DNA of 64,000 nt from a virus. The translations under genes were made by a program, and so were the position numbers. How positions within the stretch are numbered: position 1 is the stretch's first letter; every line of letters starts with the position of its first letter. The notes under the pieces were generated by a model. That model saw nothing but the letters and a program-made list of their open reading frames with translations, made no database searches and was not told the DNA's origin. This document shows, in pieces, positions 16,309 through 33,873 of this stretch. The DNA is taken from positions 64,001 through 128,000 of IMG/VR virus record IMGVR_UViG_3300011115_000879. One strand, 5' to 3'.

Positions 16309-17451
16309 ATGACAGTTATAGATAAAATACTAAATGAATGGTCTTATCGCTGTAGCGATGGGATTGTAGATATGAATAATCCTACTAAACGAGAGATATT
16401 AAATATAATATTGAAGGAAAATGGTGTTGAATTAGAAGAAGCTAAACCTAAGAAAGAAAAACCAGTTGAAGAAGAAGATACATCTGATATAGGAAATATA
16501 ATATCTACTTTAAAATCAGTAGGAATTAGAAAAGATATTCTTAATGATATTAAAAATATATTATTAAATTATAATGAAGATCAGTTAAAAAATTTCATAA
16601 GCAAATTTAGAACATACGATATAAATAATATCACTGATATTTATAAAACATTCTCTGATTTTTTCAATATTACTACTAAAGGATTAGGTAGAGGTGAAGT
16701 TATGTTAATTATAGGATTAAAAGATAGTAAGTCCGGTGGTACATCATCTAAAGATATAGAAATAAAAGGTAAAGTATACGAAGTAAAGGAATTAGCGGGT
16801 GGTGAATTTAGTTTAGCTAGTGATGGTTATATCGGTGGTACTACTTACCTTCAAAATTTAAACACATTTAAGAAATATTTAACAAAAGAGATTGTACCGG
16901 CTTTAGATATTACTGAAGATGAAGCTAATACTTTATACGAAACTATAAACTATTATACTGAAAATGGTCCCAATAATGCCTCACGAGGATTTTTGATTAA
17001 TTTAGAAAAATCATGTGAAATATTAAAACAAAATATTACTAAAACTAGCATCCAAACTATAAATTATATTACTGTTAGAGGTAAAAAAATAGCAATTAGT
17101 GATGAAGATTGGGATAAAATACAAGCAGGAAGTGGTCCTGTAAATATATCTTTTGGGGATGAAGTTAGTGAAGTTAAAATTAATTTATCTAAATTAGATA
17201 AACACCCTTGGGTTTTAAATCCAAAAGAAATAAAAGATAATTTAAATACCATATGGGATTCATTTCTTAATAAAATAGAAGGAATAATAGCTTTTAAATA
17301 TCAAGATAAATCAGAAGGAATATTTTTAACTAAAGAAGAAGTAAAAGAAAATTTTATACCTTTTAGAATTGTTCAAAACTCCTTACTAGCAAAAGAAAAA
17401 TCAATAGTAAATAAGAAAAAAGAAATAACAGAAGAATATGACACAATTTAA
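16309..17451 (+). CDS. PD-(D/E)XK restriction-endonuclease-fold protein with LNE leader
   Basis: GRGEV...KDIEIKGKVYEVKE fits E...D...ExK; leader MTVIDKILNE. Confidence 0.5.
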   Translation: MTVIDKILNEWSYRCSDGIVDMNNPTKREILNIILKENGVELEEAKPKKEKPVEEEDTSDIGNIISTLKSVGIRKDILNDIKNILLNYNEDQLKNFISKFRTYDINNITDIYKTFSDFFNITTKGLGRGEVMLIIGLKDSKSGGTSSKDIEIKGKVYEVKELAGGEFSLASDGYIGGTTYLQNLNTFKKYLTKEIVPALDITEDEANTLYETINYYTENGPNNASRGFLINLEKSCEILKQNITKTSIQTINYITVRGKKIAISDEDWDKIQAGSGPVNISFGDEVSEVKINLSKLDKHPWVLNPKEIKDNLNTIWDSFLNKIEGIIAFKYQDKSEGIFLTKEEVKENFIPFRIVQNSLLAKEKSIVNKKKEITEEYDTI

Positions 17452-17686
17452 CCCACTAGATACAATTACAGTAGACGTACCATTATTCATACGCCTATTA
17501 GAATACGCCCGTGAAGACGCTAAAACCGATATGGATTTACATAACGTAGCTGAAAACGCAATCACATTAAGCGAAACCGGTAAAACATTAAAAATGACTG
17601 ACTATGATGCTATTGTTAAAGATGGCGGACAAGAAGGAACAATAGCTGAATCTAAAAGAATGCAGAAGTTAGCTAATATAAACTAA
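17438..17686 (+). CDS. Small protein with scaffold-like C-terminal motif
   Basis: Ends IAESKRMQKLANIN; the scaffold ends IKRMQKLANIIK. Confidence 0.6.
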   Translation: MTQFNPLDTITVDVPLFIRLLEYAREDAKTDMDLHNVAENAITLSETGKTLKMTDYDAIVKDGGQEGTIAESKRMQKLANIN

Positions 17687-17740
17687 ACATACAGACTAGA
17701 TTCATTGCCTAGTCGCATCGGAATAAAATAATCAAAGTAG

Positions 17741-17770
17741 TGGCTCATCTTAATAGATGGGCCATCTTCT
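17741..17770 (+). terminator. Terminator-like hairpin
   Basis: TGGCTCATCT-TAAT-AGATGGGCCA, 10-bp stem with a pyrimidine tail. Confidence 0.6.
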
Positions 17771-17819
17771 ATTTGAAAAATAGGTGGTTGGTCTGATGGA
17801 AAGTCGTATATTTATTGTC

Positions 17820-18443
17820 ATGATAAGCATATACATTTTAGAAAGAAATGGGATACCATTTTATGTAGGTAAAGCAAATGATGTAATAAGACGAAAACAC
17901 AAACACCATCAAACATATGGTCCTGATATAACATTAACTATTGTTGATAAAGTTGAAGATTGGAAATATTGGGAAGAGTATTGGATTGAACAGTTTAAAG
18001 CATGGGGGTTTATTTTATTAAATCAAAATAAAGGTGGTGGTGGTCCTGAACGATATACTGAAGAACAGAAACAAAAAATGAGAAAACCTCGTATAATAGG
18101 AACTGGAGATAAAATAAGTAAAACATTGAAACAAAGAAATCATTCACAATATTATACTGAAGAAGTTAAACAGCGAATAAGTGAAGGAAATAAAATACTA
18201 AAACCATTCTCAGATGAACATAAACAAAATATGGGTATAGCTAAACGTAAACAAGCAACACCTGTACTTATGTTTGACTTAAATAATAATTTAATTAAGG
18301 AATGGGAGAGCAAAGGTCAAGCAGCAGAATGGATTAAAGAACAAACAGGTAAAACAAGTAATGTAACATCACAGATTAAAGATTGTATTTTGGGGAGGCA
18401 AAAAACAGCGTTTAAATTTAAATGGAAATATAAAACAATATGA
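17820..18443 (+). CDS. Free-standing GIY-YIG homing endonuclease with NUMOD-type repeats
   Basis: IYIL...FYVGK, EEYWI, LLN; repeats YTEEQKQKM/YTEEVKQRIS/FSDEHKQNM; C-terminal NUMOD1-like tail. ATG at 17820 follows ATATTTAT. Confidence 0.8.
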   Translation: MISIYILERNGIPFYVGKANDVIRRKHKHHQTYGPDITLTIVDKVEDWKYWEEYWIEQFKAWGFILLNQNKGGGGPERYTEEQKQKMRKPRIIGTGDKISKTLKQRNHSQYYTEEVKQRISEGNKILKPFSDEHKQNMGIAKRKQATPVLMFDLNNNLIKEWESKGQAAEWIKEQTGKTSNVTSQIKDCILGRQKTAFKFKWKYKTI

Positions 18444-19750
18444 AATACACAAAGAAAATTGTAATTGTAGGAAGTGGTGTAGCTGGTATTAATGCCGCTA
18501 CCAAATTAGTAGATAACGGTTATCCTGGTGAATTAATCACTATTATTGATAAAGGTAATGATCCTCATAATAGATTACCAAGTGAAGTTATGTGTGGTTT
18601 CGCAGGAGCAGGAGCGTGGAGTGATGGCAAACTAACTTACCATACAGCAATCGGTGGTCAATTAGCTAAGTATTGTGGTGAAGAAAAAGCTATGGAATTG
18701 ATGGATCAAGTCATTAGTAACTTCAGACGCTTTCACCCCAAACCAGAAGAAATATTCTGTTCTGATCCAGTAGCTGAACCAGACTTCATTAAACCATACT
18801 TTGGATTACGTTTATTTCCTGTATGGCATATTGGTAGTAACTATCTACATGAGATTGCTAAAGCATGGTATCAATATTTAGTTGATAAAGGTGTTAATTT
18901 TATGTGGAATAAAGAAGTAAAACGCATAGCATTTGAATCAGATTTTATTTTGTATGATAAGAATAGCAAGTTAGGTACTATGCTTAAATTAAATTATGAC
19001 GAATTAATATTTGCAGTAGGTAAATCAGGTATTGACTTTGCTCAAAAACTATCAGACGACTATAAACTACCAACTGAACCTAAATCAGTACAAATTGGAG
19101 TACGCTTTGAAGCACCACAGAAATATTTCCAAAAACTAATTGATATATCATATGATTTTAAATTATATCAGAAATTCGATAATGTATCTTTACGTAGCTT
19201 TTGTACTAACAACAACGCGGCTTTCGTTGCTGTTGAAGAAACGTACGGCGATGTAACATACAATGGTCACGCTAAGAAAGGTGAAGAATTTAGAAACAAC
19301 ATGACTAACTTTGGTATCTTAATGGAAATTAAGGGTATTGAAGATCCATTTAAATGGTCACGCGATGTAGTAGAAAAATTACAAAGCGAAGGAACAGGAT
19401 TGTATTTCTCACCATCACGTACACCAGCATTAACATCTGAAGGTGTAACAGTATCTGCTACTCAAATTAAAAGTTTAGTACCCTTTGAAGAAGCATTAGG
19501 AGAATACTCAAAATATATTATGGATTTTATCATTCAAATGGATAAAGTATTTAAATTTGGTGATGATTGGGGTATGTATATCCCTGAAGTAAAGTATTTA
19601 AGTCCTGAACCATTAGTAAACTATACAAACTTAGCATTAAATGAATTTCCAAATGTACATTTCGTTGGCGATGCATTAAGTGCTCGTGGTATTACTGTAT
19701 CAGGCGCTCATGGAATTTATGTTTCTGAATATTTATTAACAAACGTATAA
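18440..19750 (+). CDS. FAD-dependent oxidoreductase
   Basis: IVIVGSGVAG Rossmann motif, GFAGAGAWSDGKL, FVGD...RGI near the C-terminus. Confidence 0.85.
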   Translation: MKYTKKIVIVGSGVAGINAATKLVDNGYPGELITIIDKGNDPHNRLPSEVMCGFAGAGAWSDGKLTYHTAIGGQLAKYCGEEKAMELMDQVISNFRRFHPKPEEIFCSDPVAEPDFIKPYFGLRLFPVWHIGSNYLHEIAKAWYQYLVDKGVNFMWNKEVKRIAFESDFILYDKNSKLGTMLKLNYDELIFAVGKSGIDFAQKLSDDYKLPTEPKSVQIGVRFEAPQKYFQKLIDISYDFKLYQKFDNVSLRSFCTNNNAAFVAVEETYGDVTYNGHAKKGEEFRNNMTNFGILMEIKGIEDPFKWSRDVVEKLQSEGTGLYFSPSRTPALTSEGVTVSATQIKSLVPFEEALGEYSKYIMDFIIQMDKVFKFGDDWGMYIPEVKYLSPEPLVNYTNLALNEFPNVHFVGDALSARGITVSGAHGIYVSEYLLTNV

Positions 19751-19751
19751 T

Positions 19752-20153
19752 ATGAGTATAAAAAGATTGCGCGAATCTATTCGTCGTATCATATTGCAAG
19801 AGTTAAATGAAAATCTTACAATTAAAGGAAAAAAAGTTAAAACATACAAACAAAATGGTGATAAATCATACGCTGTTGTATATGATGATGGTACCAAAGC
19901 TACAATAATGGTAAGTGATAAGGAATGGGATAATCTTAATGATGCACCTAAATTATCTGAAAACTCACCTGCACCTTCTAAACCAAGGGAAAACCCAGGA
20001 CCAGCAATCGCACCAGGTAAACCAGGTGAAAAAGACAAACCACGTCGTCCATTAGGAAATCCTAACGTTAAACCTGCTCCTAAAGCAAAAGCAACAATGG
20101 ATGAAGCAGAAATGCTAGCTAAGATTATCAAACGCTTTAAATCTAAAAAATAA
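19752..20153 (+). CDS. Putative internal head protein with Pro-rich linker
   Basis: Leader ending LQELNE; further LSE and MDE sites. Confidence 0.45.
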   Translation: MSIKRLRESIRRIILQELNENLTIKGKKVKTYKQNGDKSYAVVYDDGTKATIMVSDKEWDNLNDAPKLSENSPAPSKPRENPGPAIAPGKPGEKDKPRRPLGNPNVKPAPKAKATMDEAEMLAKIIKRFKSKK

Positions 20154-21166
20154 TGGCTCGTTTATTAGAAGTAGAATATGATAAAATATTCTCGCCAAAA
20201 ACAATGGCTGGTTTAAAGGGTAAAACAGCTGCATCTCTAAAGCAAATGGTTGGTAATAAATCATTAATGCAAACATTAATGAAATCTCAAGAGGTATTAG
20301 ATGAAATTGTCGATGCTGAAGAAGGATACCGTGATGAATTAGAAATGGTAGCTGCCCAAATGGTAACAGATGCATACCCAATCATTGGCTACGCTAACAT
20401 CAAAATTGATGCTAAAATAGCCGGCCTGGGGGATATGAATATTGAACCTGGTGATGGTGAAGTAAGCATAGATGAAATGCCTGAAACTGAAGAAACTGAT
20501 AAAGCAAAACGCCGTATCATTAATGGTATTACACAAGGTGCATCAATTAGAGGTGCTTTTGGTTTTATGCTATTTAAAGAATATATAGACGCTATCAACC
20601 CAGCATTAGTAGAAAAATATAACGAAATCCTAAAAATGGCATTCGGTATATATGATGACGAAAATGCAATTGCAATGATGTTAGCAGCATTAGCTCAAGG
20701 ACAAAAAATGCAAGGTGGTGAAAGCGAAATGGAATATGATGAAGAAAATGAGCAATTTGTTATTAAAGCGAAAGCAATATGCTTCCCAATGCTTGTACAT
20801 GAAATCGTAAAAGGATTGTATGAAATCGTTGGTACAGAAGGTTTTGGTGCTGATAAAGAAAAAAACCAAGCTATCGTAGGTGCTGTAGATAAATTATCAA
20901 ATGAACCTAAAGATTTACAATTAGGTAAATTCATATATGATGCTGTAAGTAAAATATATAATGAAAGTAATATTGATGATGCACGTGTACGTGAATTATT
21001 CTTTGCTGAAGTATATAAATTAAATGATATGGAATTTATTCCATTCATTGAGAATGCTATCAACGATGAATTAACTAACAGTCAAAAACAATGGGCTTCA
21101 AACACAATGAAGGATATTGAACGCGACTTAAAGAAAGATGATACTGGACTTTCAGGATTGGATTAG
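20153..21166 (+). CDS. Acidic helical hypothetical protein, putative head protein
   Basis: MARLLE leader; FPMLVHEIVKGLYE motif. Confidence 0.45.
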   Translation: MARLLEVEYDKIFSPKTMAGLKGKTAASLKQMVGNKSLMQTLMKSQEVLDEIVDAEEGYRDELEMVAAQMVTDAYPIIGYANIKIDAKIAGLGDMNIEPGDGEVSIDEMPETEETDKAKRRIINGITQGASIRGAFGFMLFKEYIDAINPALVEKYNEILKMAFGIYDDENAIAMMLAALAQGQKMQGGESEMEYDEENEQFVIKAKAICFPMLVHEIVKGLYEIVGTEGFGADKEKNQAIVGAVDKLSNEPKDLQLGKFIYDAVSKIYNESNIDDARVRELFFAEVYKLNDMEFIPFIENAINDELTNSQKQWASNTMKDIERDLKKDDTGLSGLD

Positions 21167-21188
21167 CAAGATTTCCTTCGTAACTTTA
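21157..21188 (+). promoter_or_regulatory. Bacteroidota-type promoter candidate
   Basis: ATTG-N20-TAACTTTA preceded by CTTCG, matching the site at 4335-4365. Confidence 0.4.
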
Positions 21189-21200
21189 AAATAAAAAACG

Positions 21201-21446
21201 ATGGAAAGTAATTTAGAAACAAAACGTCTTAAATCATCTGATGGAACTATAGCGTATTATTGTTTAGGTAAAATGCATAATTGGGAAGGACCAGCATTAA
21301 TCCCTCAAGGAAATAAACGCAAAGCTGAATATTATTTGTTTGGTATTAAACATACAAAAACTCAGTGGGAAGAAAAGAAAAAAGATGTTCATGGTCAACC
21401 ATGGTATAAAACATCAGCTGGTAAAGCAGCAGGAGCAAGAATGTAA
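21201..21446 (+). CDS. Hypothetical protein
   Basis: 81 aa; HNWEGPA motif; A-rich initiation context. Confidence 0.55.
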   Translation: MESNLETKRLKSSDGTIAYYCLGKMHNWEGPALIPQGNKRKAEYYLFGIKHTKTQWEEKKKDVHGQPWYKTSAGKAAGARM

Positions 21447-21452
21447 AAAAAT

Positions 21453-21477
21453 AAGGACCGTCAAGGTCCTTTTTTTA
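21453..21477 (+). terminator. Intrinsic terminator (possibly bidirectional)
   Basis: AAGGACC-GTCAA-GGTCCTT flanked by an A-run and a T-run. Confidence 0.8.
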
Positions 21478-21487
21478 TCTTTATAAC

Positions 21488-21745
21488 ATGGAAGAAAGAA
21501 GAGGAAGACCAAAAGAAATAATAGTAGAAGAAGCACCACGTAAGTATACTAAAGTATATGAGTACGAGGATTCAACAGAAACTTGGGTTTATAATTTAGA
21601 CAAACATCATGGTCCTATTAGCGTTGATATTAAGTATAAGAACAATGTTGACAAAAATTGGGCTAAGAGACAAAAAGAACAAAAGCGAATAGATAGTAGT
21701 ATGCGCAAAATAAAAAAAGCACAATCACTTAAAACACAAAAATAA
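21488..21745 (+). CDS. Small basic hypothetical protein
   Basis: RRGRPK AT-hook-like N-terminus; TAATG overlap with the next gene. Confidence 0.5.
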   Translation: MEERRGRPKEIIVEEAPRKYTKVYEYEDSTETWVYNLDKHHGPISVDIKYKNNVDKNWAKRQKEQKRIDSSMRKIKKAQSLKTQK

Positions 21746-22266
21746 TGAGAATAGGGTTATGTGGAACAATTAGTGTAGGAAAAACTACATTAGTAAAAGC
21801 GTTAAAAGAATTAGAGCAATTTAAAGATTATGAAATTGCAACTGAACGTAGTAAATACTTACGCGATCAAGGTGTAGCATTAAATACAGATTCTACAATA
21901 AAAGGTCAATTGGTGTTTGCTGCTGAACGTAGTATTGAATTAATGAAAGAAAATATCATTACTGATAGAACAATATATGATGTTACTGCATTTACACTCA
22001 GTGCTAAATCAATTGGGTGGACTGAAAAGCGATATTTTACTGAATTATTAATGATACTACGCGACGAATATGATTTACTAATTTATGTATCGCCTGAAGG
22101 TGTTGAACTTGAAGATAATGGTGTTCGTACTACAGATGCTGAATATAGAGAAAAAATTGATCTTTGTATAAAAGAAATGTTAGACGAATTCAAACACAAA
22201 AATTTATTAACAGTAAAAGGTACAACTGAAGAACGTATCGCTACTATCATCTCTCATCTAAATTAA
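21745..22266 (+). CDS. P-loop nucleoside/nucleotide kinase-like ATPase (NadR/AAA_28-like)
   Basis: GTISVGKTT Walker A; ITDRT; EDNGVR lid. Confidence 0.75.
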   Translation: MRIGLCGTISVGKTTLVKALKELEQFKDYEIATERSKYLRDQGVALNTDSTIKGQLVFAAERSIELMKENIITDRTIYDVTAFTLSAKSIGWTEKRYFTELLMILRDEYDLLIYVSPEGVELEDNGVRTTDAEYREKIDLCIKEMLDEFKHKNLLTVKGTTEERIATIISHLN

Positions 22267-22302
22267 ATATTTATGGATATCACCACAACTGAATTAAAAA
22301 CA

Positions 22303-23280
22303 ATGAAAGCCAAACAACTACGCAGAATAATACAAGAAGTTATAAATGAAGCTACAGAAGTAGATGTTAAAACTGCTAAAAAAGCAGCATTAGATCTAAA
22401 AATGAAATATGCTGATGCTGAATCAAAAGCCGCTGCTCTTGAAAAAACAGTAGCTTCTAGTCAAAAAGCAGCAATAAGTGAAATGGAAATTGATGAAATG
22501 GCTCGTATCGCTAAAGGATTTAGATTAGCTGATCCAAATCTTAATGCTTCTCAATACGCTACAAAACGCATAAGCGGAACTTCAATGGCTGATGTTATTG
22601 AATTTTTTAGAGAAAATCCAGGTGCTGAAAAAACAGCATTACAAGCACAATTTGGTTTCGTTCGCCCACAAATCGCAAACGCAATAGTAAATGGTTTATT
22701 AGATGCAGGTGTATTAGTTAAGTTAGGAGCAGGTGGTGAAGAAGAAGCACCAGTAGCACCAGGCGAAACAGTACCAACACAAGCAACTGAACCAGAAGAT
22801 ATGTTCATGGGTAGTGCTGAAAATCCATTATCAATGTATTTTGATGATGAACCAAATGCAGACGGAAGCGAAAATTTCACTGATGATGAAGAACCAGATG
22901 CCGGTGAAATTGAAAAAAGCAATATGGCCGCTGGTGGTATGTCTGATGCTGATTATGAAGCTTGGATGAAATATGGTGAATTAAAACAACGTTTAGATTC
23001 TACAAAAAGCAATATCTTAAAATTAAGAAAAAATAAAGGTGGATCTTTTGGAGATATATCAGATAAACCATCAACTGAATTACAACGCTTACGTGATTTA
23101 AAATTATCATTAGAAGAAAGAATTGTAGCTTTAATTGCTTCATCTCCATATCTACAAGCTAAACTTAAGAAAGAAGAACCTATAGTTCCTGTTATTGAAC
23201 CTGAAGAAGAAACAGAAGTAGAACCATTAGATGAATGGACAATACGTAAAATGCAATATTATGCTGGAATTAGTAAGTAA
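22303..23280 (+). CDS. Acidic putative internal head protein
   Basis: Start at 22303 preferred because the ATG at 22273 overlaps ATATTTAT; leader ending VINE; C-terminus RKMQYYAGISK. Confidence 0.5.
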   Translation: MKAKQLRRIIQEVINEATEVDVKTAKKAALDLKMKYADAESKAAALEKTVASSQKAAISEMEIDEMARIAKGFRLADPNLNASQYATKRISGTSMADVIEFFRENPGAEKTALQAQFGFVRPQIANAIVNGLLDAGVLVKLGAGGEEEAPVAPGETVPTQATEPEDMFMGSAENPLSMYFDDEPNADGSENFTDDEEPDAGEIEKSNMAAGGMSDADYEAWMKYGELKQRLDSTKSNILKLRKNKGGSFGDISDKPSTELQRLRDLKLSLEERIVALIASSPYLQAKLKKEEPIVPVIEPEEETEVEPLDEWTIRKMQYYAGISK

Positions 23281-23623
23281 ATATAAAACACAAATTAAGT
23301 ACGGCTTATATGCCGTGCTTTCTTTGTTTGTAATATATGGGATGATCTATATATTCACTCCAAAACCCCAAATGCCGATTGATTTTAAGGCAACTATCGA
23401 TTCATTGATAAAAGCAAATGCCGCACTGCAAGCTAAACAACTTGAAATTGATAGTACTATTGGTAGATATGAAAATGAAGTTGATATTTTAAATGGAATG
23501 ATAGGAAGTATAACAGAAAAAACTACTATCATTAGAGAATACTATCACGAACAAAGTAATACAGCTGGTAAGTATACTCCAACACAAGTAGATTCATTCT
23601 TTAAATCAAGATATAAATACTAA
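23261..23623 (+). CDS. N-terminally anchored coiled-coil membrane protein (i-spanin-like)
   Basis: Hydrophobic YGLYAVLSLFVIYGMIYIF followed by heptad-like helix. Confidence 0.5.
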   Translation: MLELVSKYKTQIKYGLYAVLSLFVIYGMIYIFTPKPQMPIDFKATIDSLIKANAALQAKQLEIDSTIGRYENEVDILNGMIGSITEKTTIIREYYHEQSNTAGKYTPTQVDSFFKSRYKY

Positions 23624-23624
23624 T

Positions 23625-24017
23625 ATGAAACTATTTTCTATAGTAGTAGCACTTCTACTCTCAACAACAACACAAGCTCAAGATACAATTAAAATACCGG
23701 CACCTGTAGCTAAACAAATCGTATTAGATTTAATTAGTGGTGATAGTGCTAAAGCTGAATTAGGTTTAGTACAACAACAACTAACATTAACAAATAAAGT
23801 TGTTGTATTAAAAGATAGTATCATATCTAACTATGTTCAAAAATGTAATATTTATGATGAGCGTATCACTAATGAGCAAGCTAAATATAACGTACAAGGT
23901 TTGTATGTTAAACAATTAGAAAAGAGTAATAAAAAATTAAAAATAAAATTAATATTCACTAAAATAGTATCAATTGCTGTTGCCGGTTCAATTAGCTATT
24001 TTTACTTAATAAAATAA
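23625..24017 (+). CDS. Secreted coiled-coil protein with C-terminal hydrophobic helix (possible spanin partner)
   Basis: Signal peptide MKLFSIVVALLLSTTTQA-Q; C-terminal IVSIAVAGSISYFYLI. Confidence 0.45.
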   Translation: MKLFSIVVALLLSTTTQAQDTIKIPAPVAKQIVLDLISGDSAKAELGLVQQQLTLTNKVVVLKDSIISNYVQKCNIYDERITNEQAKYNVQGLYVKQLEKSNKKLKIKLIFTKIVSIAVAGSISYFYLIK

Positions 24018-24020
24018 AAA

Positions 24021-24338
24021 ATGAAACAACCAATCAACGAAATCCGCAGAATGCAGCAATTAGCTGGTATCTTAAATGAAGAAATGGGTGAGTTTAAAGA
24101 GGTTCCATCAAGTGCCGTAGTTAGTGGAAAATCTATTGTTACTGACGGTGAAAATTACTACGTATACAAAACCTCGTTAGGAGCATCTAACGAAAATACA
24201 GCTTTCTTTGTATACGATATGAAAGGTAATGAACTAAATAAATATGATCTAGTGGATGATAAAGCGACTATAGGACAAAGTCGTAAACTAAAAGCAGCAG
24301 TAGACGCATTAGAACAAATAAGCGGATTAGGTTTATAA
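24021..24338 (+). CDS. Putative internal head protein with RMQQLAG leader
   Basis: MKQPINEIRRMQQLAGILNE, near-identical to the start of 31672..32598. Confidence 0.55.
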   Translation: MKQPINEIRRMQQLAGILNEEMGEFKEVPSSAVVSGKSIVTDGENYYVYKTSLGASNENTAFFVYDMKGNELNKYDLVDDKATIGQSRKLKAAVDALEQISGLGL

Positions 24339-24364: not shown

Positions 24365-24453
24365 TGTTCTAGTCTACCTTAGGAACATACCGTTAAGCAT
24401 TTCTAGACCGATGCGAAACACATACCTAACCCCGTAAGGTTAGGTTTTTTTTT
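24365..24453 (+). ncRNA. Structured intergenic element ending in a terminator
   Basis: TGTTC/GAACA and GCAT/ATGC stems with complementary loops (GTCTA/TAGAC), then ACCTAACC-CCGTAA-GGTTAGGT plus a T-run. The terminator is well supported; the ncRNA call is tentative. Confidence 0.35.
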
Positions 24454-24472
24454 GCTTTGTATATTTATATAT

Positions 24473-26068
24473 ATGAGCAACCCACAAGCTAATATAAAGG
24501 AAATAATAAAGCAGGAGTATATTAAATGTGCAACAGATCCTGTCTATTTCTTTCGCAAATACTGCTACATATCTCACCCCGTTAAAGGTAGAGTACTATT
24601 CCATTTATATCCATTTCAAGGAGATGTATTAAATGATTTTAGAAATAATCGTTTTAGTATTATAAATAAATCTAGACAGCTAGGTATATCTACTCTATCA
24701 GCCGGATATTCTCTATGGTTAATGATGTTTAATAAAGATAAAACTATACTTTGTATAGCCACTACTCAAAAAACAGCAGCCAACATGATTGAGAAGGTAC
24801 AGTTTATGTACAATAACTTACCATCTTGGCTACGAGGCAACCAAAAACCATTAGCAGATAATAAATTATCACTCAAACTACCAAATAACTCTCAGATTAT
24901 AGCAGCATCCGCCGCATCCGATTCTGGCCGTTCATATGCTGTATCACTACTAATAGTGGATGAAGCAGCATTTATTGAAGGTATTGATAAAATATACACG
25001 AGTGTTAAACCAACAATTGCTACAGGTGGAGGTATTATAGCATTATCATCACCAAATGGTGTTGGTAACTGGTTTCATAAGATGTATACTGAAGCTGAAT
25101 TAGGTAAAAACGATTTTAAAGCAATTAAATTAAGATGGGATTTACACCCCGATAGAACAGGAGATTGGGAGCAAACAGAACGAGCAAACATGTCATTACG
25201 TGAATTTGCTCAAGAGTATGACTGCGATTTCTTAGGTTCAGGAAATTCACTAATTGAACCAGATAACTTATCTTTCTATGAGCAAACATTTATTCAAGAA
25301 CCTATGGAACGCCGCTTTATGGGTGGTGACTATTGGGTGTGGCAGTATCCTGACTATAGTAAGTCTTATATTGTATGTGCTGATGTGGCTCGCGGTGATA
25401 GTAGTGACTACTCAGCATTCCATGTTATCGATGTTGAAGCGTGTGAGCAAGTAGCAGAATATAAATCTCAGATAGATACTCGCTCATATGGTAATATGTT
25501 AGTATCGGTAGCTACTGAGTATAACAACGCTTTACTGGTAGTAGAAAACGCGAATATCGGTTGGGACGTCATAAACACTATAATCGAAAAGGGATATCAG
25601 AATTTGCATTATTCACCTAGAATAAATGGTGATATAAGTGCAGATAAATGGTTATCTAAAATGGAATCTGAACAAACAGTACCTGGATTTACAACATCAG
25701 CAAAAACAAGACCTCTTGTCATTGCAAAAATGGAGTCGTACATTCGAGACAGACATTTTATCTTTCGTTCTAGAAGATTATTAGAAGAACTACGTGTATT
25801 CATTTGGATGAATGGTAAAGCACAAGCACAAAGTGGTTATAATGATGATTTAGTAATATCTTTAGGAATAGGCTTATTTACTAGAGATACAGGAATAAAA
25901 TTTCATTCACAAGGACTAGAATCATCACGAGCAGCAATAGCTGGTATATCTAGTACAGGATATGGAGGTGGATATGGTAATATGCCTATGATGCCTAATG
26001 GTACACCCAATCCCTACCAAATGGAAACGCAATATGGTGTTGAAGATTTAGGTTGGATGATGGGATAA
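24473..26068 (+). CDS. terL: Terminase large subunit (T4 gp17-like)
   Basis: KSRQLGIST Walker A, LLIVDEAAF Walker B, SSPNG, ADVARG and DDLV nuclease motifs; ATG at 24473. Confidence 0.95.
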   Translation: MSNPQANIKEIIKQEYIKCATDPVYFFRKYCYISHPVKGRVLFHLYPFQGDVLNDFRNNRFSIINKSRQLGISTLSAGYSLWLMMFNKDKTILCIATTQKTAANMIEKVQFMYNNLPSWLRGNQKPLADNKLSLKLPNNSQIIAASAASDSGRSYAVSLLIVDEAAFIEGIDKIYTSVKPTIATGGGIIALSSPNGVGNWFHKMYTEAELGKNDFKAIKLRWDLHPDRTGDWEQTERANMSLREFAQEYDCDFLGSGNSLIEPDNLSFYEQTFIQEPMERRFMGGDYWVWQYPDYSKSYIVCADVARGDSSDYSAFHVIDVEACEQVAEYKSQIDTRSYGNMLVSVATEYNNALLVVENANIGWDVINTIIEKGYQNLHYSPRINGDISADKWLSKMESEQTVPGFTTSAKTRPLVIAKMESYIRDRHFIFRSRRLLEELRVFIWMNGKAQAQSGYNDDLVISLGIGLFTRDTGIKFHSQGLESSRAAIAGISSTGYGGGYGNMPMMPNGTPNPYQMETQYGVEDLGWMMG

Positions 26069-26100
26069 GTAAATATTTATTGACATAATAAAAACAAATA

Positions 26101-27990
26101 ATGGCAGAACAACAAAATGATCCAGGATTATTTGGCAAATTGAAACGCCTATTTTCGACGGACGTTATTATAAGAAATGTAGGAGGAGATCAACTGAAAG
26201 TTACTGATGTTGATAGAATTCAAGCTTATGGTAACATAAAAACAAATGCCTTAATAGATAGATTTACTAAGTTGCATAGATACGGAGCTAATATGCCGTA
26301 TAATCCAACAATGAACTACCAAACACTTCGCATTCAGTTATACACTGACTATGAAGCAATGGATACAGAATCTATTATCGCATCAGCATTAGATATTATT
26401 GCTGATGAAGCAACATTAAAGAATGAAAATGGAGAAGTAATTCAAATTATGTCTCCAGACGAAAATATTCAACGCATTCTATATAACTTATTTTACGATG
26501 TATTAAACATTGAATTTAACTTATGGATGTGGATTAGAAACATGTGCAAATATGGTGATTTTTATCTTCACCTTGAGATTGCAGAAAAGTTCGGTATATA
26601 CACAGTAACACCACTGTCTGTATACGATATGGTTCGTGAAGAAGGAATGGACCCACAAAACCCCTCATATGTTTGCTTCAAAATTGATCCAATGGTTATT
26701 GCAGCTGGTGGTATTAATTCTCGAGTTAAAGACAGAGATGGAAAAATTAAGTTTGAGAATTATGAGATAGCTCATTTTCGCTTATTAACCGACGCTAATT
26801 ATCTACCATATGGTAGAGCATATATTGAACCAGCACGTAAAACGTACAAACAATACGTACTAATGAAAGATGCGATGTTATTACATCGTGTTACTCGTGC
26901 TCCGGAAAAACGCGTATTCTATATTGATATTGGTAATTTACCTCCTAATGAGGTTGATGGATACATGGAGAAGTTGAAAAACAAAATGAAGAAAACTCCA
27001 TTTATTGACCAAAATACAGGCGAATATAACTTACGTTATAATCAAATGAACGTAATGGAAGATTTTTATATTCCTCAACGTGGCGCTAATAGTAATACTA
27101 AGATTGATACAATTAAAGGTTTAGAGTATAACGCAATTGATGACGTAAACTTCTTACGTGATGAAATGTTAGCTGCTCTTAAAGTACCAAAAGCATTCTT
27201 CGGATTTGAAAAGGATTTAACTGGTAAAGCTACATTAGCCGCTGAAGATATCCGTTTCGCTCGTACAGTAGAACGTATTCAACGTATTGTATTATCTGAA
27301 TTATATAAAATGGCATTAGTGCATTTATATACTCAAGGATATGATGGTGAATCACTAAATAACTTTGAATTAAATTTATCTACTCCATCAATCATCTACG
27401 AACAAGAAAAAGTAGCATTATGGAAAGAAAAGATTGCATTAGCTAAAGATGTTCAAGATAGTAAATTAATGCCTTCAGATTGGATTTACGATAAAATATT
27501 CCAATTCAGTGAAGATCAATACGATGAATACCGTGATTTGGTAGCTGAAGATATGAAACGTACATTCCGCCTATCTCAAATTGAGAACGAAGGCAATGAC
27601 CCAGCTAAATCAGGCAAATCATATGGTACACCACATGATCTAGCATCATTATATGGTAAAGGAAGAAATGGTACAGGAACAAATCCAGTACCTCCAGGAT
27701 ATGATGAAAAAGCACCTGTTGGTCGTCCTAAAGAAAAAGCATCTATTGTTGGTACACAAGATAGAGCATTAGGTAAAGACCCATTAGGTAGTAAAGAAAA
27801 TGGAACATTATACACTGCAAATATACCTGACGAAACAGGTACACCAAAAGGTGGTTCACCATTAGCATTAGCTGAATCTTATAGATATAAAAGTATGCTA
27901 TCAATGATACCTAGGGGTGAAAAGCAAATAATCTTTGAAGCAGAAGAAAAATCTAATCTACTAGACGAAGATAATATTAAAGGACTATAA
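26101..27990 (+). CDS. gp20: Portal protein (T4 gp20-like)
   Basis: RAPEKRVFYIDIGNLP, EDFYIP, ALKVPK; directly follows terL. Confidence 0.93.
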   Translation: MAEQQNDPGLFGKLKRLFSTDVIIRNVGGDQLKVTDVDRIQAYGNIKTNALIDRFTKLHRYGANMPYNPTMNYQTLRIQLYTDYEAMDTESIIASALDIIADEATLKNENGEVIQIMSPDENIQRILYNLFYDVLNIEFNLWMWIRNMCKYGDFYLHLEIAEKFGIYTVTPLSVYDMVREEGMDPQNPSYVCFKIDPMVIAAGGINSRVKDRDGKIKFENYEIAHFRLLTDANYLPYGRAYIEPARKTYKQYVLMKDAMLLHRVTRAPEKRVFYIDIGNLPPNEVDGYMEKLKNKMKKTPFIDQNTGEYNLRYNQMNVMEDFYIPQRGANSNTKIDTIKGLEYNAIDDVNFLRDEMLAALKVPKAFFGFEKDLTGKATLAAEDIRFARTVERIQRIVLSELYKMALVHLYTQGYDGESLNNFELNLSTPSIIYEQEKVALWKEKIALAKDVQDSKLMPSDWIYDKIFQFSEDQYDEYRDLVAEDMKRTFRLSQIENEGNDPAKSGKSYGTPHDLASLYGKGRNGTGTNPVPPGYDEKAPVGRPKEKASIVGTQDRALGKDPLGSKENGTLYTANIPDETGTPKGGSPLALAESYRYKSMLSMIPRGEKQIIFEAEEKSNLLDEDNIKGL

Positions 27991-28028
27991 AGTACTGTAT
28001 ATTTATACGCAGTGTATACTAACTAATT

Positions 28029-28883
28029 ATGAAGATTAAACATAACAAATTTAAAAATACAGGTATATTATTTGAATTGCTAGTGCGCCAAATCGCATCA
28101 GATACTATATCTGGTAAAGATTCGGCTGCAATTAATTTAGTAAAGAAATACTTTTCTAAATCTGAATTAGCAAAAGAACATAAAATATACCAAGCTTTAG
28201 TTAGCTCAAAAGCATTAACTGAAGGTAAAGCCGAATCATTAATTAATGCTACGCTTGAATTATCTTCACGTTTAAATAAATCTGCTTTACGCAAAGAAAA
28301 ATACAATATCATTAAAGATATTCGTGAATCTTATGAATTGGAAGAATTTTTCAAATCAAAAATCAACAACTACCCTCAATACGCAGCAGCATATATTTTA
28401 CTTGAAGCTAATAATTCATTAGAATTTATTGAGCCATCTCAAGTTATTGAGAATAAAGTAACTTTACTTGAACATATATCTCGTACTACCGTTAATAAAA
28501 CCGATGTTAAAGATCGCGTTTTAGAAGAGTACGCTACTATGGATAAAGGTACTCGCATATTAGTATATAAAATGTTACTAGAGAAATTTAATAGCAAATA
28601 CAATAATATGTCTAATGCTCAAAAATCAGTACTAAAAGAATACATTAACAATATATCTAATACAGTTAAATTAAGAGAATTTGTAAATGATAGCTTCGTT
28701 GCTATTAAATTAGATTTAATTAAACTTAACAAAGTGGTAACAGATAAAACTACTCAGATTAAAATACACGAAGTAGCTAATTTATTAAAACCATTGGATA
28801 AAAATCAAAATGTAAAAGACGATAACATTATTGCTTTACTACAATTCCATCAGTTAGTAGCTGAACTTAAATCTATTAAGTAA
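28029..28883 (+). CDS. Helical hypothetical protein in the head module
   Basis: 284-aa intact ORF after the portal, with its own ATATTTAT. Confidence 0.55.
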   Translation: MKIKHNKFKNTGILFELLVRQIASDTISGKDSAAINLVKKYFSKSELAKEHKIYQALVSSKALTEGKAESLINATLELSSRLNKSALRKEKYNIIKDIRESYELEEFFKSKINNYPQYAAAYILLEANNSLEFIEPSQVIENKVTLLEHISRTTVNKTDVKDRVLEEYATMDKGTRILVYKMLLEKFNSKYNNMSNAQKSVLKEYINNISNTVKLREFVNDSFVAIKLDLIKLNKVVTDKTTQIKIHEVANLLKPLDKNQNVKDDNIIALLQFHQLVAELKSIK

Positions 28884-29536
28884 TGACACTGGAAGAATAT
28901 ATCAAAAAAATCATAGATGAAGAATCAGCATCTGGTGATGCTGGTGGATATATGACTCCAAAAGCATTTTCTCCTAAAGGACAAGGCAAAAATGCTGCTA
29001 CTAAATCAGCAGAAAAACAAGGTTGGAAAGTTACTAAAGGTGAAACCGAAATGCCTGCTGATTCTAAAGTAAAAGATTATAAATCTATTTGGAATAAAAA
29101 GAAAAAAAGAACTAAAATATATAACGAAAGCGGCTATACCGAAAAATCTATTTCTTCCCAATCAAGTGGATACACTGCAGCAAGCGGTTATACAGGTGGT
29201 GGAATTAAAGGAGACGATTATTATAAAAAAGAAAGTATGAATAAAGAATTATTGGATATTATTGAAAAAGAAATAATAAACGAGGCTACATACAATAAAT
29301 TCAAAAAAGAAATATCTTACCGTTCTAAAACTGAAATGCTACATAAAGGTATTAAGCAAGTAAAACGTAAGTTAGCCGAAATCGATCGTATCGTTGAATA
29401 TACATCTCGTATGAAACAAGAATTGAGTGAAGGTGAAGAAGGTGTTAAATATTGGAAATCAACTGAAAAAAACGTTACTCAAATCGCTGAAATGGTAAAT
29501 AACTTAAACGAAAAAATTAAAAATTTATATAAATAA
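28883..29536 (+). CDS. Putative prohead core/internal protein
   Basis: IIDE, IYNE, IINE and LSE sites; coiled-coil C-terminus. Confidence 0.45.
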   Translation: MTLEEYIKKIIDEESASGDAGGYMTPKAFSPKGQGKNAATKSAEKQGWKVTKGETEMPADSKVKDYKSIWNKKKKRTKIYNESGYTEKSISSQSSGYTAASGYTGGGIKGDDYYKKESMNKELLDIIEKEIINEATYNKFKKEISYRSKTEMLHKGIKQVKRKLAEIDRIVEYTSRMKQELSEGEEGVKYWKSTEKNVTQIAEMVNNLNEKIKNLYK

Positions 29537-29844
29537 TGGCTAATATACCAGTAAACCCAGGTGGAACATTTTTATTTGCAGGTCAAACCGCAACAGGATC
29601 ATTTGCAGGAATGCTTGCCCTATCAACAGGATCAGTATTTGCTCCTACAGGATCACAAATAACAGGATTAAAATATATTAATGGATATAATGTAGTATCT
29701 GATGGAAAAGGATTTCAAAACTATATTCCTACAGAAACTACTATATCAACTGTATTTAATCTAGATCCTGGTACTAAAATTGATTTAGTAATTACTTCTT
29801 GTAGTTTAGCTGCCGGAAGTGCACCTGTAATTTTATATACTTAA
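29536..29844 (+). CDS. Small beta-rich protein, possible capsid decoration protein
   Basis: 102 aa, TGS-rich, low charge, located in the head module. Confidence 0.4.
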   Translation: MANIPVNPGGTFLFAGQTATGSFAGMLALSTGSVFAPTGSQITGLKYINGYNVVSDGKGFQNYIPTETTISTVFNLDPGTKIDLVITSCSLAAGSAPVILYT

Positions 29845-29856
29845 AATAAAACAATA

Positions 29857-29982
29857 ATGGCAAAAGCATCATCAAGCGACGCTCGTAAAGTAACATTTGG
29901 TGCTCGTAAAAAAGGAGCAGCAAAAAAATCATTCAACAAACATTCACCTCGTCCAAAGAAATATAAAAGTCAAGGCCGCTAA
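29857..29982 (+). CDS. Small very basic protein (41 aa, absent from ORF track)
   Basis: MAKASSSDARKVTFGARKKGAAKKSFNKHSPRPKKYKSQGR; fills the gap between genes with an A-rich initiation context. Confidence 0.65.
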   Translation: MAKASSSDARKVTFGARKKGAAKKSFNKHSPRPKKYKSQGR

Positions 29983-29994
29983 ACTATACCAAGC

Positions 29995-31032
29995 ATGAAA
30001 AGTGTAAAACAACAATACATCGATTTACAAGAAGGTAAAATGTCTCAAACGCAATTTATGCGTAATATACGTTTAACCTTACCTCAGTATGTTACTAATG
30101 TAACATCATTTGATGATTCAGTTAGAATCCTTAAAAATAAAGGTATATTATCTGAAGCTGATACAAAATCATCTGAAGGTGAAGGTAAATGGAAAACAGT
30201 TACTGGTAAAGATTTATATAGTCATTTTAAAGAAATTGACAATTTAAATGGTCAAGAAGTATTAGTTGGTGTTGATTATGAAATGGAAAAAAATCCTGAG
30301 CTAACTAAACTAGAAGCTCAAAAGATTGTAATTAAAAACCTAAAGAAAAATCAATTTTACTACACAGCACAAGATGTATCTGGTGTAGAAGGATATGAGA
30401 TGGAATATATGGGTTCTAAAGAAGATGTAAAGGCTCGTCAAATGCAATATCTTGAAAAAAACATGAGCAATGTTGTTGACAAGAAAATGGGTATGAAACC
30501 AGTTAAAGGCTTCGAAAACGCAAAAGCATCATCAAATAAAGCATCTAAAGAAACTAATAAAAGTGGAGAAATAGATATAATGTCATTAGTAGCTAAAACC
30601 GTTCGTGGTTTAGTTAAAATGGACGCTACCGGTGAAAAAGCTAAGAAAATTGTAATGAAGGAAGGTGAAGAAATGGATACAATGGCATTAGTACAACGTT
30701 TCATTAATAGCAATCCTACATTAAGACAACACACCACAGATATTGAACTTGAAAATAGCGGTAAAGGTGTTATTTTGAAATACGGATTTTATGATACATT
30801 ACCTGATGAATTATATTCTAAATTAGAATTACAATTTGATGTTAATGGAATGGATGATAATACAGATGAGGAAGGTGAAAAAGTATATTATACATTAACA
30901 CCAAAAAAATCACCATATAACTCACAATACTCAGGTGTCGGTTTACAATCACCATTAGAAGAAGAAATACGCAAACAAGTAAAAGAAATGTTTGATGGTC
31001 GTGACAATTTAACTGATATTGAAAATTTTTAA
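29995..31032 (+). CDS. Putative prohead core/internal protein
   Basis: LQE, LSE, MKE and LEE sites; GVDYEME motif; directly upstream of the protease. Confidence 0.45.
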   Translation: MKSVKQQYIDLQEGKMSQTQFMRNIRLTLPQYVTNVTSFDDSVRILKNKGILSEADTKSSEGEGKWKTVTGKDLYSHFKEIDNLNGQEVLVGVDYEMEKNPELTKLEAQKIVIKNLKKNQFYYTAQDVSGVEGYEMEYMGSKEDVKARQMQYLEKNMSNVVDKKMGMKPVKGFENAKASSNKASKETNKSGEIDIMSLVAKTVRGLVKMDATGEKAKKIVMKEGEEMDTMALVQRFINSNPTLRQHTTDIELENSGKGVILKYGFYDTLPDELYSKLELQFDVNGMDDNTDEEGEKVYYTLTPKKSPYNSQYSGVGLQSPLEEEIRKQVKEMFDGRDNLTDIENF

Positions 31033-31033
31033 T

Positions 31034-31648
31034 ATGAAGCAACTATTAATCGATCATACACCGTTTAACGTAGCAAAACTAACATTATCTGAAGCGAAAG
31101 CAATAGATAATGGTAGAATGCGTATTAAAGGTAAATTACAAGAAGCCGAACAAAAGAATGGCAATGGTCGTGTTTATCCTATGGAAGTATTGCGTCGCGA
31201 AGTAGAAAAATACATTGACGGCCCAATAAAATCTAATACAGCAATGGGTGAGTTAGATCACCCCGAAGCATCAATCGTTAACTTAAACAACGTATCACAC
31301 AATATTAAACGCATATGGTGGGAAGGTAATGACTTGATGGGTGAATTAGAATTACTAAATACACCATCAGGAAAAATTGCTCAAGAAATTATATCTGCAG
31401 GAATACCATTAGGTATATCTTCACGTGGTATGGGTTCAGTAAAGCAAATTGGTGAATCCGTAGAAGTACAAGACGATTTCGAATTAGTATGTTGGGATTT
31501 GGTATCATTACCATCAACACCAGATGCATATATGAGATTATCTGAAGGTAAACAAACATCAACAACACCATCAAAAGACTATAGTAAAATTAATTCATTA
31601 ATAACTGAAATAATTTGCACTCACACAGGTGTATGTGCATTATGTTAA
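31034..31648 (+). CDS. gp21: Prohead protease (T4 gp21-like)
   Basis: NGNGRVYP, GELDHP (His), GISSRGMGS (Ser), WDLVSLPS (Asp). Confidence 0.93.
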   Translation: MKQLLIDHTPFNVAKLTLSEAKAIDNGRMRIKGKLQEAEQKNGNGRVYPMEVLRREVEKYIDGPIKSNTAMGELDHPEASIVNLNNVSHNIKRIWWEGNDLMGELELLNTPSGKIAQEIISAGIPLGISSRGMGSVKQIGESVEVQDDFELVCWDLVSLPSTPDAYMRLSEGKQTSTTPSKDYSKINSLITEIICTHTGVCALC

Positions 31649-31671
31649 TATTTATACAAAAATAACCCCAA

Positions 31672-32598
31672 ATGAAACAACCAATTAACGAAATTAAAAG
31701 AATGCAGCAATTAGCTGGTCTTATTACTGAATCACAGTTAAATGAAGTAGAATCGTCTTTACAAACATATTTAACAAGTATAGAAAAAAATTTAAAAAGT
31801 AAACCTGAAGAATTAACAAAAAAGATTACAGATTATTTACATTCTGTTTTTGTTGTAGGAAACGGAATACCAGGAGTTATAAGTGTCCCTAATCATATAT
31901 ACTATGTTATCCCAAGTAAAAAAGGTGATAACTTTATAACAGTAATGGGATACACAGATAGAGATAAAGGATTTATAGTTAATGATCAAATTTTAAAATG
32001 GTTGGTAAGCGCAGATCCATTTTTAAGTAATGAGGCCGCTGAAAAAGTAGTACAATCTTACATACAAGATTCAAAATTAAATACTGGAGGAAAATGGGGA
32101 GGATTTGAAAAAATGGGGGATATGTTGAAAAATCAATTTGAAACTAATAAAAAACCAGCAACTGAACCACAACAAGAATCACAACTAAATGAATACGACG
32201 AATATGATGACATCGACACACCAGAATTTGATGACGATCACGACATAGATGCTCAAAAGAAATTCGATGATATGATAGTAGACGTACCAAGACTACATCA
32301 ATTGATAAGTAGCTCTCATCACAGAGGAAAAGAAGTAACAATAAATGGTGTTAAAGTTACAGATGTAACTGGAATAGGAAACATTTTTCTAGAAAATGGT
32401 GAAAAATTAAATAGTAAAGAATTTGCTAATGGTGTTCCTGATATCAAAATCAATAACGAACCAATTAACATTCCATTCACATCATCAAAACCACCAGCAC
32501 CATTAAATTATAAATCAAGTGATGTATACCCTGCTGGAAGTTATATGGATGAAGTGGTTAATAAAGCTTTAAAAGAACACCGCAGACAACAAAAATAA
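31672..32598 (+). CDS. Two-domain putative internal head protein with RMQQLAG leader
   Basis: MKQPINEIKRMQQLAGLITESQLNE; ESQLNE recurs internally and separates two domains. Confidence 0.55.
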   Translation: MKQPINEIKRMQQLAGLITESQLNEVESSLQTYLTSIEKNLKSKPEELTKKITDYLHSVFVVGNGIPGVISVPNHIYYVIPSKKGDNFITVMGYTDRDKGFIVNDQILKWLVSADPFLSNEAAEKVVQSYIQDSKLNTGGKWGGFEKMGDMLKNQFETNKKPATEPQQESQLNEYDEYDDIDTPEFDDDHDIDAQKKFDDMIVDVPRLHQLISSSHHRGKEVTINGVKVTDVTGIGNIFLENGEKLNSKEFANGVPDIKINNEPINIPFTSSKPPAPLNYKSSDVYPAGSYMDEVVNKALKEHRRQQK

Positions 32599-32625
32599 CC
32601 CCTTTATATATAGAATATATAAACC

Positions 32626-32658
32626 GACGCCTCCCCTAAAAAGGAGGCGTTTCGCTTT
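32626..32658 (+). terminator. Terminator-like hairpin
   Basis: GACGCCTCC-CCTAAAAA-GGAGGCGTT followed by TCGCTTT. Confidence 0.65.
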
Positions 32659-32808
32659 GCGGTTTTCCATACTTACACATATTTATTACTAGCCTATAAT
32701 AGCTACCCACATCACAACTCCCCATGGTAGCTCGGCATTTTATAAACCCCACTATTAAGATTCATAATAATCTTATTTCCGTAAAATAAATTTAAGGAGA
32801 AAATCACA
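32658..32808 (+). promoter_or_regulatory. Promoter and long structured 5' leader of the scaffold-capsid operon
   Basis: TGCGGTTTT...ATATTTAT (32679); stems AGCTACC/GGTAGCT and TAAGATT/AATCTTA; AAGGAG at 32794. Confidence 0.55.
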
Positions 32809-33873
32809 ATGAGTACAAACAAAAATTTGTTCAAAGAAGCAATCGCTGACGCTAAAGCCGTTCGTGAAGCTGCGTTAGCAAACGCAAAAGTTGCCCTTGA
32901 AGAAGCTTTGACTCCGAAACTTCAATCTATGTTATCTGCAAAGTTACAAGAAATGGAGTCATACGAAGAAGGTGCAATGGGTGGCTACACAGATGAAAAT
33001 CTGGATGAAGAAGATTACATGCAACCTTTAAACACAGCTGACGAAATGGGTCAGTCTGGTTTCGGAGCTAGAGAGCAAGGTAAACCTGGTTTTGGAGATT
33101 TAGGTTTTGAAGAAGAAGATTTGGAAGAAGATTTCGATTTATCTGAAATTTTAGCTGAACTTAACGAAGCTGATGAAGAAGAAGCTGAGGAAGAAGGCGA
33201 AGAAGAAGAGGATGAAGAGGAAGAAGAAGAAGAATCTGAAGAAGGCGAAAACGTTGCTGACATGTCTGTTGAAGACTTAAAAGATCTTATCAAATCAATC
33301 GTTGATCAAGAATTGGAAGCTGAAGAAGCAGAAACACCTGCTGAAGAAGAAGCTGAATATGCTGATGGCGAAGAAGCTGGTGAAGAAGCAGGCAACGAAG
33401 ACGAAATCGATTTAGAAGAATTACTTGCTGAATTAGATTCTTTAGGTGAAAATGATGACGAAGACGATATCATGGAAGCTAAAAAGAAAGCTAAAGACAC
33501 TAAGAAAGAAAAAGAAGCTAAAGAAGAAATGAAAGAAGCAGTAGCTACTATCAATGCTCTTCGTAAAGAAATGAACGAAGTTAATTTATTAAACGCTAAA
33601 TTACTTTACGTAAACAAAATCTTCAAAGCTAAGAATTTAACTGAATCACAAAAAGTAAAAGTAATTGCTTCATTTGATAAAGCAACTAACGTTAAAGAAG
33701 CTAAAGTAGTATTCGAATCATTAAATAGTGCTTTACGTGCACCTGCTAAAAAAGCAATTAAAGAATCCTTTGGATTTGCTTCAAAAGCATCAGGTGTTGC
33801 TCAAAACAGAACAATAGTTGAATCAAACGATGCTATTAAACGTATGCAAAAACTTGCAAACATCATTAAATAA
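32809..33873 (+). CDS. Prohead core scaffold protein (T4 gp22-like role)
   Basis: Very acidic helical protein between protease and capsid genes, with many LxE sites. Confidence 0.8.
   Translation: MSTNKNLFKEAIADAKAVREAALANAKVALEEALTPKLQSMLSAKLQEMESYEEGAMGGYTDENLDEEDYMQPLNTADEMGQSGFGAREQGKPGFGDLGFEEEDLEEDFDLSEILAELNEADEEEAEEEGEEEEDEEEEEEESEEGENVADMSVEDLKDLIKSIVDQELEAEEAETPAEEEAEYADGEEAGEEAGNEDEIDLEELLAELDSLGENDDEDDIMEAKKKAKDTKKEKEAKEEMKEAVATINALRKEMNEVNLLNAKLLYVNKIFKAKNLTESQKVKVIASFDKATNVKEAKVVFESLNSALRAPAKKAIKESFGFASKASGVAQNRTIVESNDAIKRMQKLANIIK

Follow-up and report, generated by a model that had tools for sequence, protein, structure and literature searches.

Why should the scaffold of a phage head share a short terminal peptide with proteins that are otherwise unrelated to it? 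The question is raised by a stretch of 64,000 nucleotides (the window), bases 64001-128000 of a single phage contig of 159,567 bp (IMG/VR record IMGVR_UViG_3300011115_000879), in which the C-terminal motif of the scaffold protein, with the core RMQxLA, recurs at the end of two other proteins and at the start of two more. A sequence-only reading of the window had proposed that these proteins mimic the capsid-binding helix of the scaffold and are then clipped free. On our analysis, the motif is likely to be a copy of the scaffold's own C-terminal peptide that serves as a cleavable prohead-targeting tag. That the tagged proteins are packaged and cleaved, and which partner they bind, is what we infer.

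Copies of the scaffold tail in one phage genome

The scaffold protein (gp22-like, 354 aa, acidic and helical) is encoded at 32809-33873 on the + strand, between the protease block and the capsid genes. It ends in KRMQKLANIIK, preceded by an IVE site (33814-33822, + strand), and the 16-residue tail that follows this site and carries the motif (33823-33870, + strand) is the presumed template of the tag. The core [RK][RK]MQ.[LY]A gave five matches in a six-frame translation of the window, with none elsewhere in the window, and the whole 159.6-kb genome contains six copies, the sixth of which is N-terminal and belongs to a gene at genome positions 135760-136269. All six copies lie in real + strand open reading frames (ORFs), not more than about 10 residues from a terminus. 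When all + strand ORFs were scanned with a position-weight matrix, the six copies scored 21-35 bits and the remainder all scored 12 bits or less. The DNA form of the motif matched the window four times, where shuffles predict 0.04 matches. One match was an out-of-frame chance hit, and two true copies were missed by this form, namely the scaffold, which uses another Arg codon, and the gene at 22273, which has Tyr where the pattern needs Leu. Chance or low complexity as the origin of the motif was rejected by the six-frame, weight-matrix and shuffle scans. The five termini quoted in the sequence-only reading were all found as described by the sequence check and the six-frame scan, and an (I/L)xE site indeed separates the motif from the body at every copy (IAE, LDE, LNE, ITE and IVE, with IVE again at the sixth).

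The N-terminal and C-terminal copies differed at the DNA level. Between the three N-tagged genes (24021, 31672 and genome 135760), the first 48 nt were identical at 46/48, 43/48 and 41/48 positions, while the 80 nt on either side of the copies were at background identity, about 30-37%, and the bodies of the three proteins had no BLAST similarity to one another. The near-identity of the first 48 nt of 24021 and 31672 on unrelated bodies, pointed out from the sequence alone, is therefore real and sharply bordered. The C-terminal copies share the peptide without sharing the codons (11-19 of 36 nt identical in register), so it is the peptide that is under selection. Recent copying or homogenisation is suggested by the N-terminal copies alone. 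Thus, the "recently copied cassette" of the sequence-only reading describes the three N-terminal copies, with their near-identical DNA and sharp borders, but not the C-terminal ones, which use other codons and belong to old conserved families. No paper containing the motif strings was found in a full-text literature search.

The tail is near-invariant in a divergent scaffold family

The phage is T4-like, of Flavobacterium-type hosts, and the contig has a G+C content of about 31%. Its nearest named relative is Flavobacterium phage vB_FspM_immuto (capsid identity 67%), and Microcystis phage Mel-JY01, a 484-kb uncultured phage and Rhodothermus phage RM378 are farther relatives. IMG/VR was scanned for DNA encoding [KR]MQ[QK]LAGI, which yielded at least 120 loci. 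Among the 122 matches listed, 88 are no more than three residues away from a stop codon and 31 are about 25 residues or less from a start; the others comprise one that is clearly internal, one in an ORF without an upstream Met, and one 13 residues from a stop. The C-terminal matches represent at least 96 distinct scaffold proteins of one family, which includes the scaffold of the window. The 96 listed scaffolds are only 22-53% identical to the window scaffold, and yet their tails are near-invariant. Their consensus consists of IxE with the E at -7 (six residues between), then R (84) or K (12), M (92), Q (88), K (82), L (94), A (96), G (92) and I (94), followed by two to four residues. The scaffolds of immuto, Mel-JY01 and LR756508 share this tail, and that of RM378 has it in a diverged form.

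The scaffold had no Pfam or PHROG match. Its alignment with T4 gp22 by hhalign was a local 33-column match (E 4.5e-4, probability 33%), and its homology to gp22 rests mainly on gene order. The scaffold of immuto (NC_055915 gp067, L001:18731-19972) is annotated as a "DNA polymerase phi-like protein", probably a misannotation due to its acidic low-complexity middle; by position, family and tail, gp067 is the head scaffold. An AlphaFold2 (AF2) model of the window scaffold, built with a 68-sequence alignment, consists of a long N-terminal helix, an acidic disordered middle and a confident helical domain at residues 218-310. Residues 311-340, which contain the IVE site, are disordered in the model, and a terminal helix at 341-349 (predicted local distance difference test value of the block about 82) is followed by the last five residues.

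The C-terminal copies belong to two large protein families

Protein A (82 aa; 17438-17686, + strand) carries KRMQKLAN in its tail, with the C-terminal tag at 17651-17683 after an IAE site at 17642-17650. Its family contains 1810 homologues. In a sample of 118 of them, 109 keep the tail core, 105 of these together with an upstream [ILVM]xE, and the family form of the tail is [ML]xE, one or two residues, and R-M-(I/Q)-(K/E)-L-A-N-I. The body of protein A was also found untagged, as the C-terminal end of a far longer ORF from an uncultured 735-kb phage (L152, LR756501:66955-68319), and therefore the tag is a separable module.

Protein B (335 aa; 22273-23280, + strand) ends in RKMQYYAGISK. This diverged C-terminal tag (23236-23277) follows an LDE site (23227-23235), and the protein has in addition an N-terminal leader ending in INE. 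Both the C-terminal tail and the N-terminal leader are conserved in the family, which has 850 homologues. The AF2 model of protein B has a long N-terminal helix, a small alpha/beta domain, an acidic disordered region and a helical hairpin, and then a disordered linker with the cut site and a terminal helix at residues 321-331, so that its layout is broadly like that of the scaffold model. A Foldseek search with the protein B model returned only generic helical hairpins with E >0.4. The C-terminal tags are old, conserved features of the large families A and B.

The N-terminal copies precede many unrelated bodies

Protein C (105 aa; 24021-24338, + strand) begins with a 20-residue tag (24021-24080) ending in LNE. 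Protein D (308 aa; 31672-32598, + strand), whose gene lies between those of the protease and the scaffold, begins with a tag at 31672-31731 ending in ITE, and its 16-residue leader is common to that of protein C except for one R/K. The sixth copy is that of protein F (169 aa; genome 135760-136269, equal to window 71760-72269 and thus outside the window), in which the N-terminal tag is followed by IVE. The tag DNA of protein F is the one that matches that of protein C at 46/48 nt, on a body unrelated to the others. A single homologue of protein C was found (P0002, 71% identity); it is also N-tagged, with three substitutions in the first 16 residues. The body of protein D had no family, protein-atlas or structure match, with atlas template-modelling (TM) scores all below 0.3, and proteins A, B, C and D had no significant or above-cutoff matches in Pfam, PHROG or PDB sequences.

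The N-tagged proteins from the IMG/VR matches listed, immuto and this genome were pooled, giving at least 38 distinct proteins, three from this genome and 35 from relatives, which fall into 37 body families unrelated by BLAST. Every one of the 38 tags has an [ILVM]xE whose E lies three to six residues after the core LAG, at exactly +4 in 30 of them, against a background of 1.7% per position for [ILVM]xE in the bodies. A second [ILVM]xE two or three residues upstream of the core, as in the scaffold, is present in 33 of the 38. The tag peptides were more alike within genomes than between genomes (identity 0.71 vs 0.56; permutation p<0.001), and identical residues were more often encoded by identical codons (0.64 vs 0.53), a difference that is modest in general and pronounced chiefly in this genome, which also has the most tagged non-scaffold proteins (five) among the matches listed. 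Cultured-phage records were examined by whole-record pattern scans, and immuto has two N-tagged genes, gp083 and gp230. A tblastn search of cultured phages with the tag gave no matches, the short-peptide query being too short. N-tagged genes often stand in tandem arrays whose members have one leader in common before unrelated bodies (three in L072, and two each in L044, L105, L097 and L057), an arrangement reminiscent of the variable internal-protein loci in T-even phages.

Three proposals of the sequence-only reading, that the motif is a portable tag derived from the scaffold C-terminus, that it is used at either terminus and that a prohead-protease site always divides it from the body, gained strong comparative support.

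A proposed route into the prohead and its alternatives

The scaffold would end in a flexible linker, a short basic amphipathic helix and a small hydrophobic hook, (R/K)MQKLAGII(K), and this tail would anchor the scaffold to a partner inside the assembling prohead. The motif is read as an anchoring helix-and-hook because of its size and shape, which are like those of the 80alpha scaffold tail, its (G/N)IIK end and the invariant Ala in the helix. The partner would most probably be the inner face or the N-terminal arm of the gp23-type capsid protein; the capsid protein is suggested as receptor by analogy with 80alpha, P22 and herpesvirus. The same sites would take up other proteins with the peptide at one end or the other, and in this way the prohead would come to enclose them. 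The activated protease of the S77 (gp21) type would then cut at (I/L)xE between tag and body, after which the scaffold would be free to exit and the cargo bodies would be left unattached within the head. The cargo may be divided into two classes. The conserved C-tagged proteins of families A and B would be head components, and the fast-changing small N-tagged proteins would be comparable to T4 internal proteins and may be injected with the DNA. The enzyme presumed to cut the (I/L)xE sites is the prohead protease encoded at 31034-31648 on the + strand (T4 gp21 type, peptidase S77; PF03420 4.6e-31, phrog_207 3.3e-57), which scored 108.3 bits against the PF03420 gathering cut-off of 27 and whose gene lies within the head module.

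Several points weigh against this route. The termini of T4 gp22, gp21, gp67 and gp68 were inspected, and they contain neither a comparable shared tag nor a clear copy of the gp22 tail. The targeting propeptides of T4 are thought to bind the core (gp22) and not the shell. Some related complete genomes carry the scaffold tail without tagged cargo in whole-record pattern scans, which makes the tagging of cargo optional, and in some relatives the scaffold has W at the position at which cargo tags retain M, so that the tag is not always an exact copy.

The T4 propeptides lead to the first alternative, that the tag is a targeting and release signal which binds the scaffold core instead of the capsid shell, so that the cargo co-polymerises with the scaffold; the helical domain at scaffold residues 218-310 or a different core protein would provide the site. 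We consider this unlikely, but it has evidence on its side, as the internal proteins of T4 are co-purified with gp22 and are described as having an affinity for the core (PMC9026906). The second domain of the scaffold, helical, highly conserved and confidently folded, could be the receptor, and the similar overall layouts of protein B and the scaffold fit co-polymerisation as well. However, if the tail links the scaffold to the shell, it is easiest to understand why the cut should take off no more than the scaffold's last 16 residues. Moreover, in systems in which the position of a scaffold C-terminus has been mapped or observed, the contact is with coat protein, as in P22 and herpesvirus. The C-terminus of the 80alpha scaffold, too, contacts coat protein (PMC5644958).

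The same cleavage sites could be turned into a second explanation, in which the prohead protease docks on the peptide or is activated by it, so that the peptide marks proteins for cleavage and not for loading. The peptide always lies within a few residues of a cleavage-type site, and the second upstream [ILVM]xE in 33 of the 38 N-tags would suit such a role. Other proteins of the window, however, have N-terminal leaders that end in (I/L)xE without the motif, so that cleavage sites do not need it, and the protease itself has no complementary or similar tail. The specificity of T4 gp21 is also described as having very few determinants (PMC9026906). We therefore regard protease docking as very improbable.

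It is hardly credible that the shared 5' sequence acts as nucleic acid, as a translation-start or recombination cassette with the peptide likeness as a by-product, since the sharp borders and 41-46/48 nt identity of the three N-tags and the greater likeness of tags within genomes, which speak for it, are set against C-terminal copies that encode the same peptide with different codons and a peptide conserved across the 96 listed scaffolds and two large families. The different codons of the C-terminal copies led us to reject a cassette acting purely at the DNA level, and a role of the DNA may add to a function at the protein level but cannot replace it.

The cleavable prohead-targeting tag is accordingly the explanation that we retain. 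It is quite possible, if short of probable, that a large, mostly uncultured lineage of T4-like phages with Bacteroidota and cyanobacteria as hosts relies on a single portable loading peptide, independent of orientation and copied from the capsid-binding helix-and-hook of the scaffold. If true, adding about 20 residues to either end of any protein would cause it to be packed into the head and subsequently clipped free, and the receptor logic would be identified for T4-type core and internal proteins, the localisation of which is still unexplained. The label is directly legible as a copy of the scaffold's tail, which gives a concrete, testable receptor hypothesis, and Flavobacterium phage immuto, with the scaffold tail and two tagged genes, offers a cultured model. 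The tag marks a large and varied collection of small proteins, probably head-borne and perhaps delivered to the host together with the DNA, and these proteins thus make up a list of candidates for host takeover or anti-defence. The loading of proteins into phage capsids could also profit from a natural tag that is short and suits either terminus.

Other leaders and the head module

A second type of leader, an N-terminal amphipathic stretch ending in (I/L)xE, was observed on the proteins encoded at 14928-15416, 15419-15775, 19752-20153, 22273-23280 (protein B) and 28883-29536. The leader of 14928-15416 resembles the N-terminus of the scaffold (32809-32870; the first ~20 residues were compared), and this resemblance hints that cargo tags may have been modelled on either end of the scaffold. 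The N-terminus of T4 gp22 likewise ends in LIAE, like the FIAE end of the internal-protein leader.

The element TAATATTTAT occurs in 16 copies on the + strand of the genome and in none on the - strand. Its positions in the window are 6094, 11174, 14895, 23846, 31646, 44572, 48036, 52513, 55981, 57611 and 60164. Most copies lie 24-70 nt upstream of start codons in the structural region, including those of genes D and F (26 nt upstream in the case of gene D), and the element is a candidate late promoter element.

The head module also contains a terminase-sized ORF at 24452-26068, whose position matches that of the annotated large terminase in immuto and Mel-JY01, and a gp20-type portal at 26101-27990 (PF07230). 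Downstream of the scaffold gene, two major capsid protein paralogues (gp23 family) are encoded on the + strand at 33902-35527 (PF07068, 1.5e-75) and 35601-37304 (PF07068, 1.4e-76). They form a tandem pair with 77% identity, in which the N-terminus is shared, the C-terminal half is almost identical, and differences and indels are concentrated at residues ~120-300, probably a surface insertion domain. Because the paralogues are 77% identical and have the same N-terminus, they do not represent two different targets. The pair is not gp23/gp24-like, and immuto has a single gene annotated as major capsid protein within the stretch examined. The C-terminus of the protease (window 31600-31648) is Cys-rich and ends in I-I-C-x-x-x-G-x-C-x-x-C; a similar end is present in Mel-JY01 (L135:8407-9069) and absent in immuto, and it is distinct from the scaffold tag. 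In Mel-JY01, a gene for ribosomal protein bS21 (L135:9561-9788) lies in the head module between the protease and the scaffold.

Comparison with known systems

Functionally, the arrangement appears to be a capsid targeting sequence (CTS) system of the T4 kind, within a homologous head module of portal, protease, scaffold and gp23-type capsid. In T4, the N-terminal propeptides of the internal proteins, 10-19 residues long, direct these proteins to the prohead core and are then removed by gp21, which cuts at (L/I)xE; C-terminal trimming occurs as well, in Alt and gp21 (PMC9026906). A review of 2023 states that the localisation of proteins to the scaffolding core of T4 remains mysterious (PMC9958956). 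The CTS of IPI, IPII and IPIII and the tag described here are both short terminal propeptides on diverse, fast-changing small proteins, both end in the (L/I)xE of an S77 protease, and in both the copies within one genome are near-identical. In contrast to the T4 CTS, the tag visibly copies the scaffold tail, is used at the C-terminus as well (17438 and 22273), which is outside the classic definition, is about 20 residues long with a second upstream site, and is conserved across a very large uncultured lineage. By eye, it has no sequence similarity to the IPIII/IPII leader of T4.

The closest parallel for the copying itself is found in phage 80alpha, in which the scaffold ends in an amphipathic helix of 11 residues and a hook of 5 residues containing RIIK; these last 16 residues bind the N-arm and the A/P cleft of the capsid protein, and the CpmB protein of the satellite SaPI1 copies this tail and binds the same site (PMC5644958). 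There, as here, the last ~16 residues of a scaffold are copied by a second protein, with a helix, a hydrophobic and basic hook, an IIK-like end and an invariant small Ala in the helix. The helix-and-hook shape is matched in our AF2 model by helix 341-349 and the five residues after it, which follow a disordered linker. The site addressed by the copy in CpmB is on an HK97-fold capsid protein. The tail here, however, ends in (G/N)IIK and not RIIK, and its spacing from the conserved Ala differs; the likeness noted is one of size and shape. CpmB is also the satellite's rival scaffold, which changes the capsid size and is not cargo, and no N-terminal use of its tail is known.

Nested protease-scaffold genes are found in herpesvirus (UL26/UL26.5) and phage lambda (C/Nu3). 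In these systems, a non-scaffold protein, the protease, enters the procapsid by way of the scaffold's C-terminal capsid-binding tail, and a maturation cut near the tail releases the scaffold. They differ in that the genes overlap in frame and the whole C-terminal domain is identical, whereas here separate, unrelated genes share only a short peptide, placed at one terminus or the other. The cargo-loading peptides of encapsulins are likewise short and terminal, usually at the C-terminus and sometimes at the N-terminus, and direct unrelated cargo into an HK97-fold shell. Encapsulins have neither scaffold nor protease, and their tag is not removed; the parallel drawn with the scaffold-derived tag is one of proposed function.

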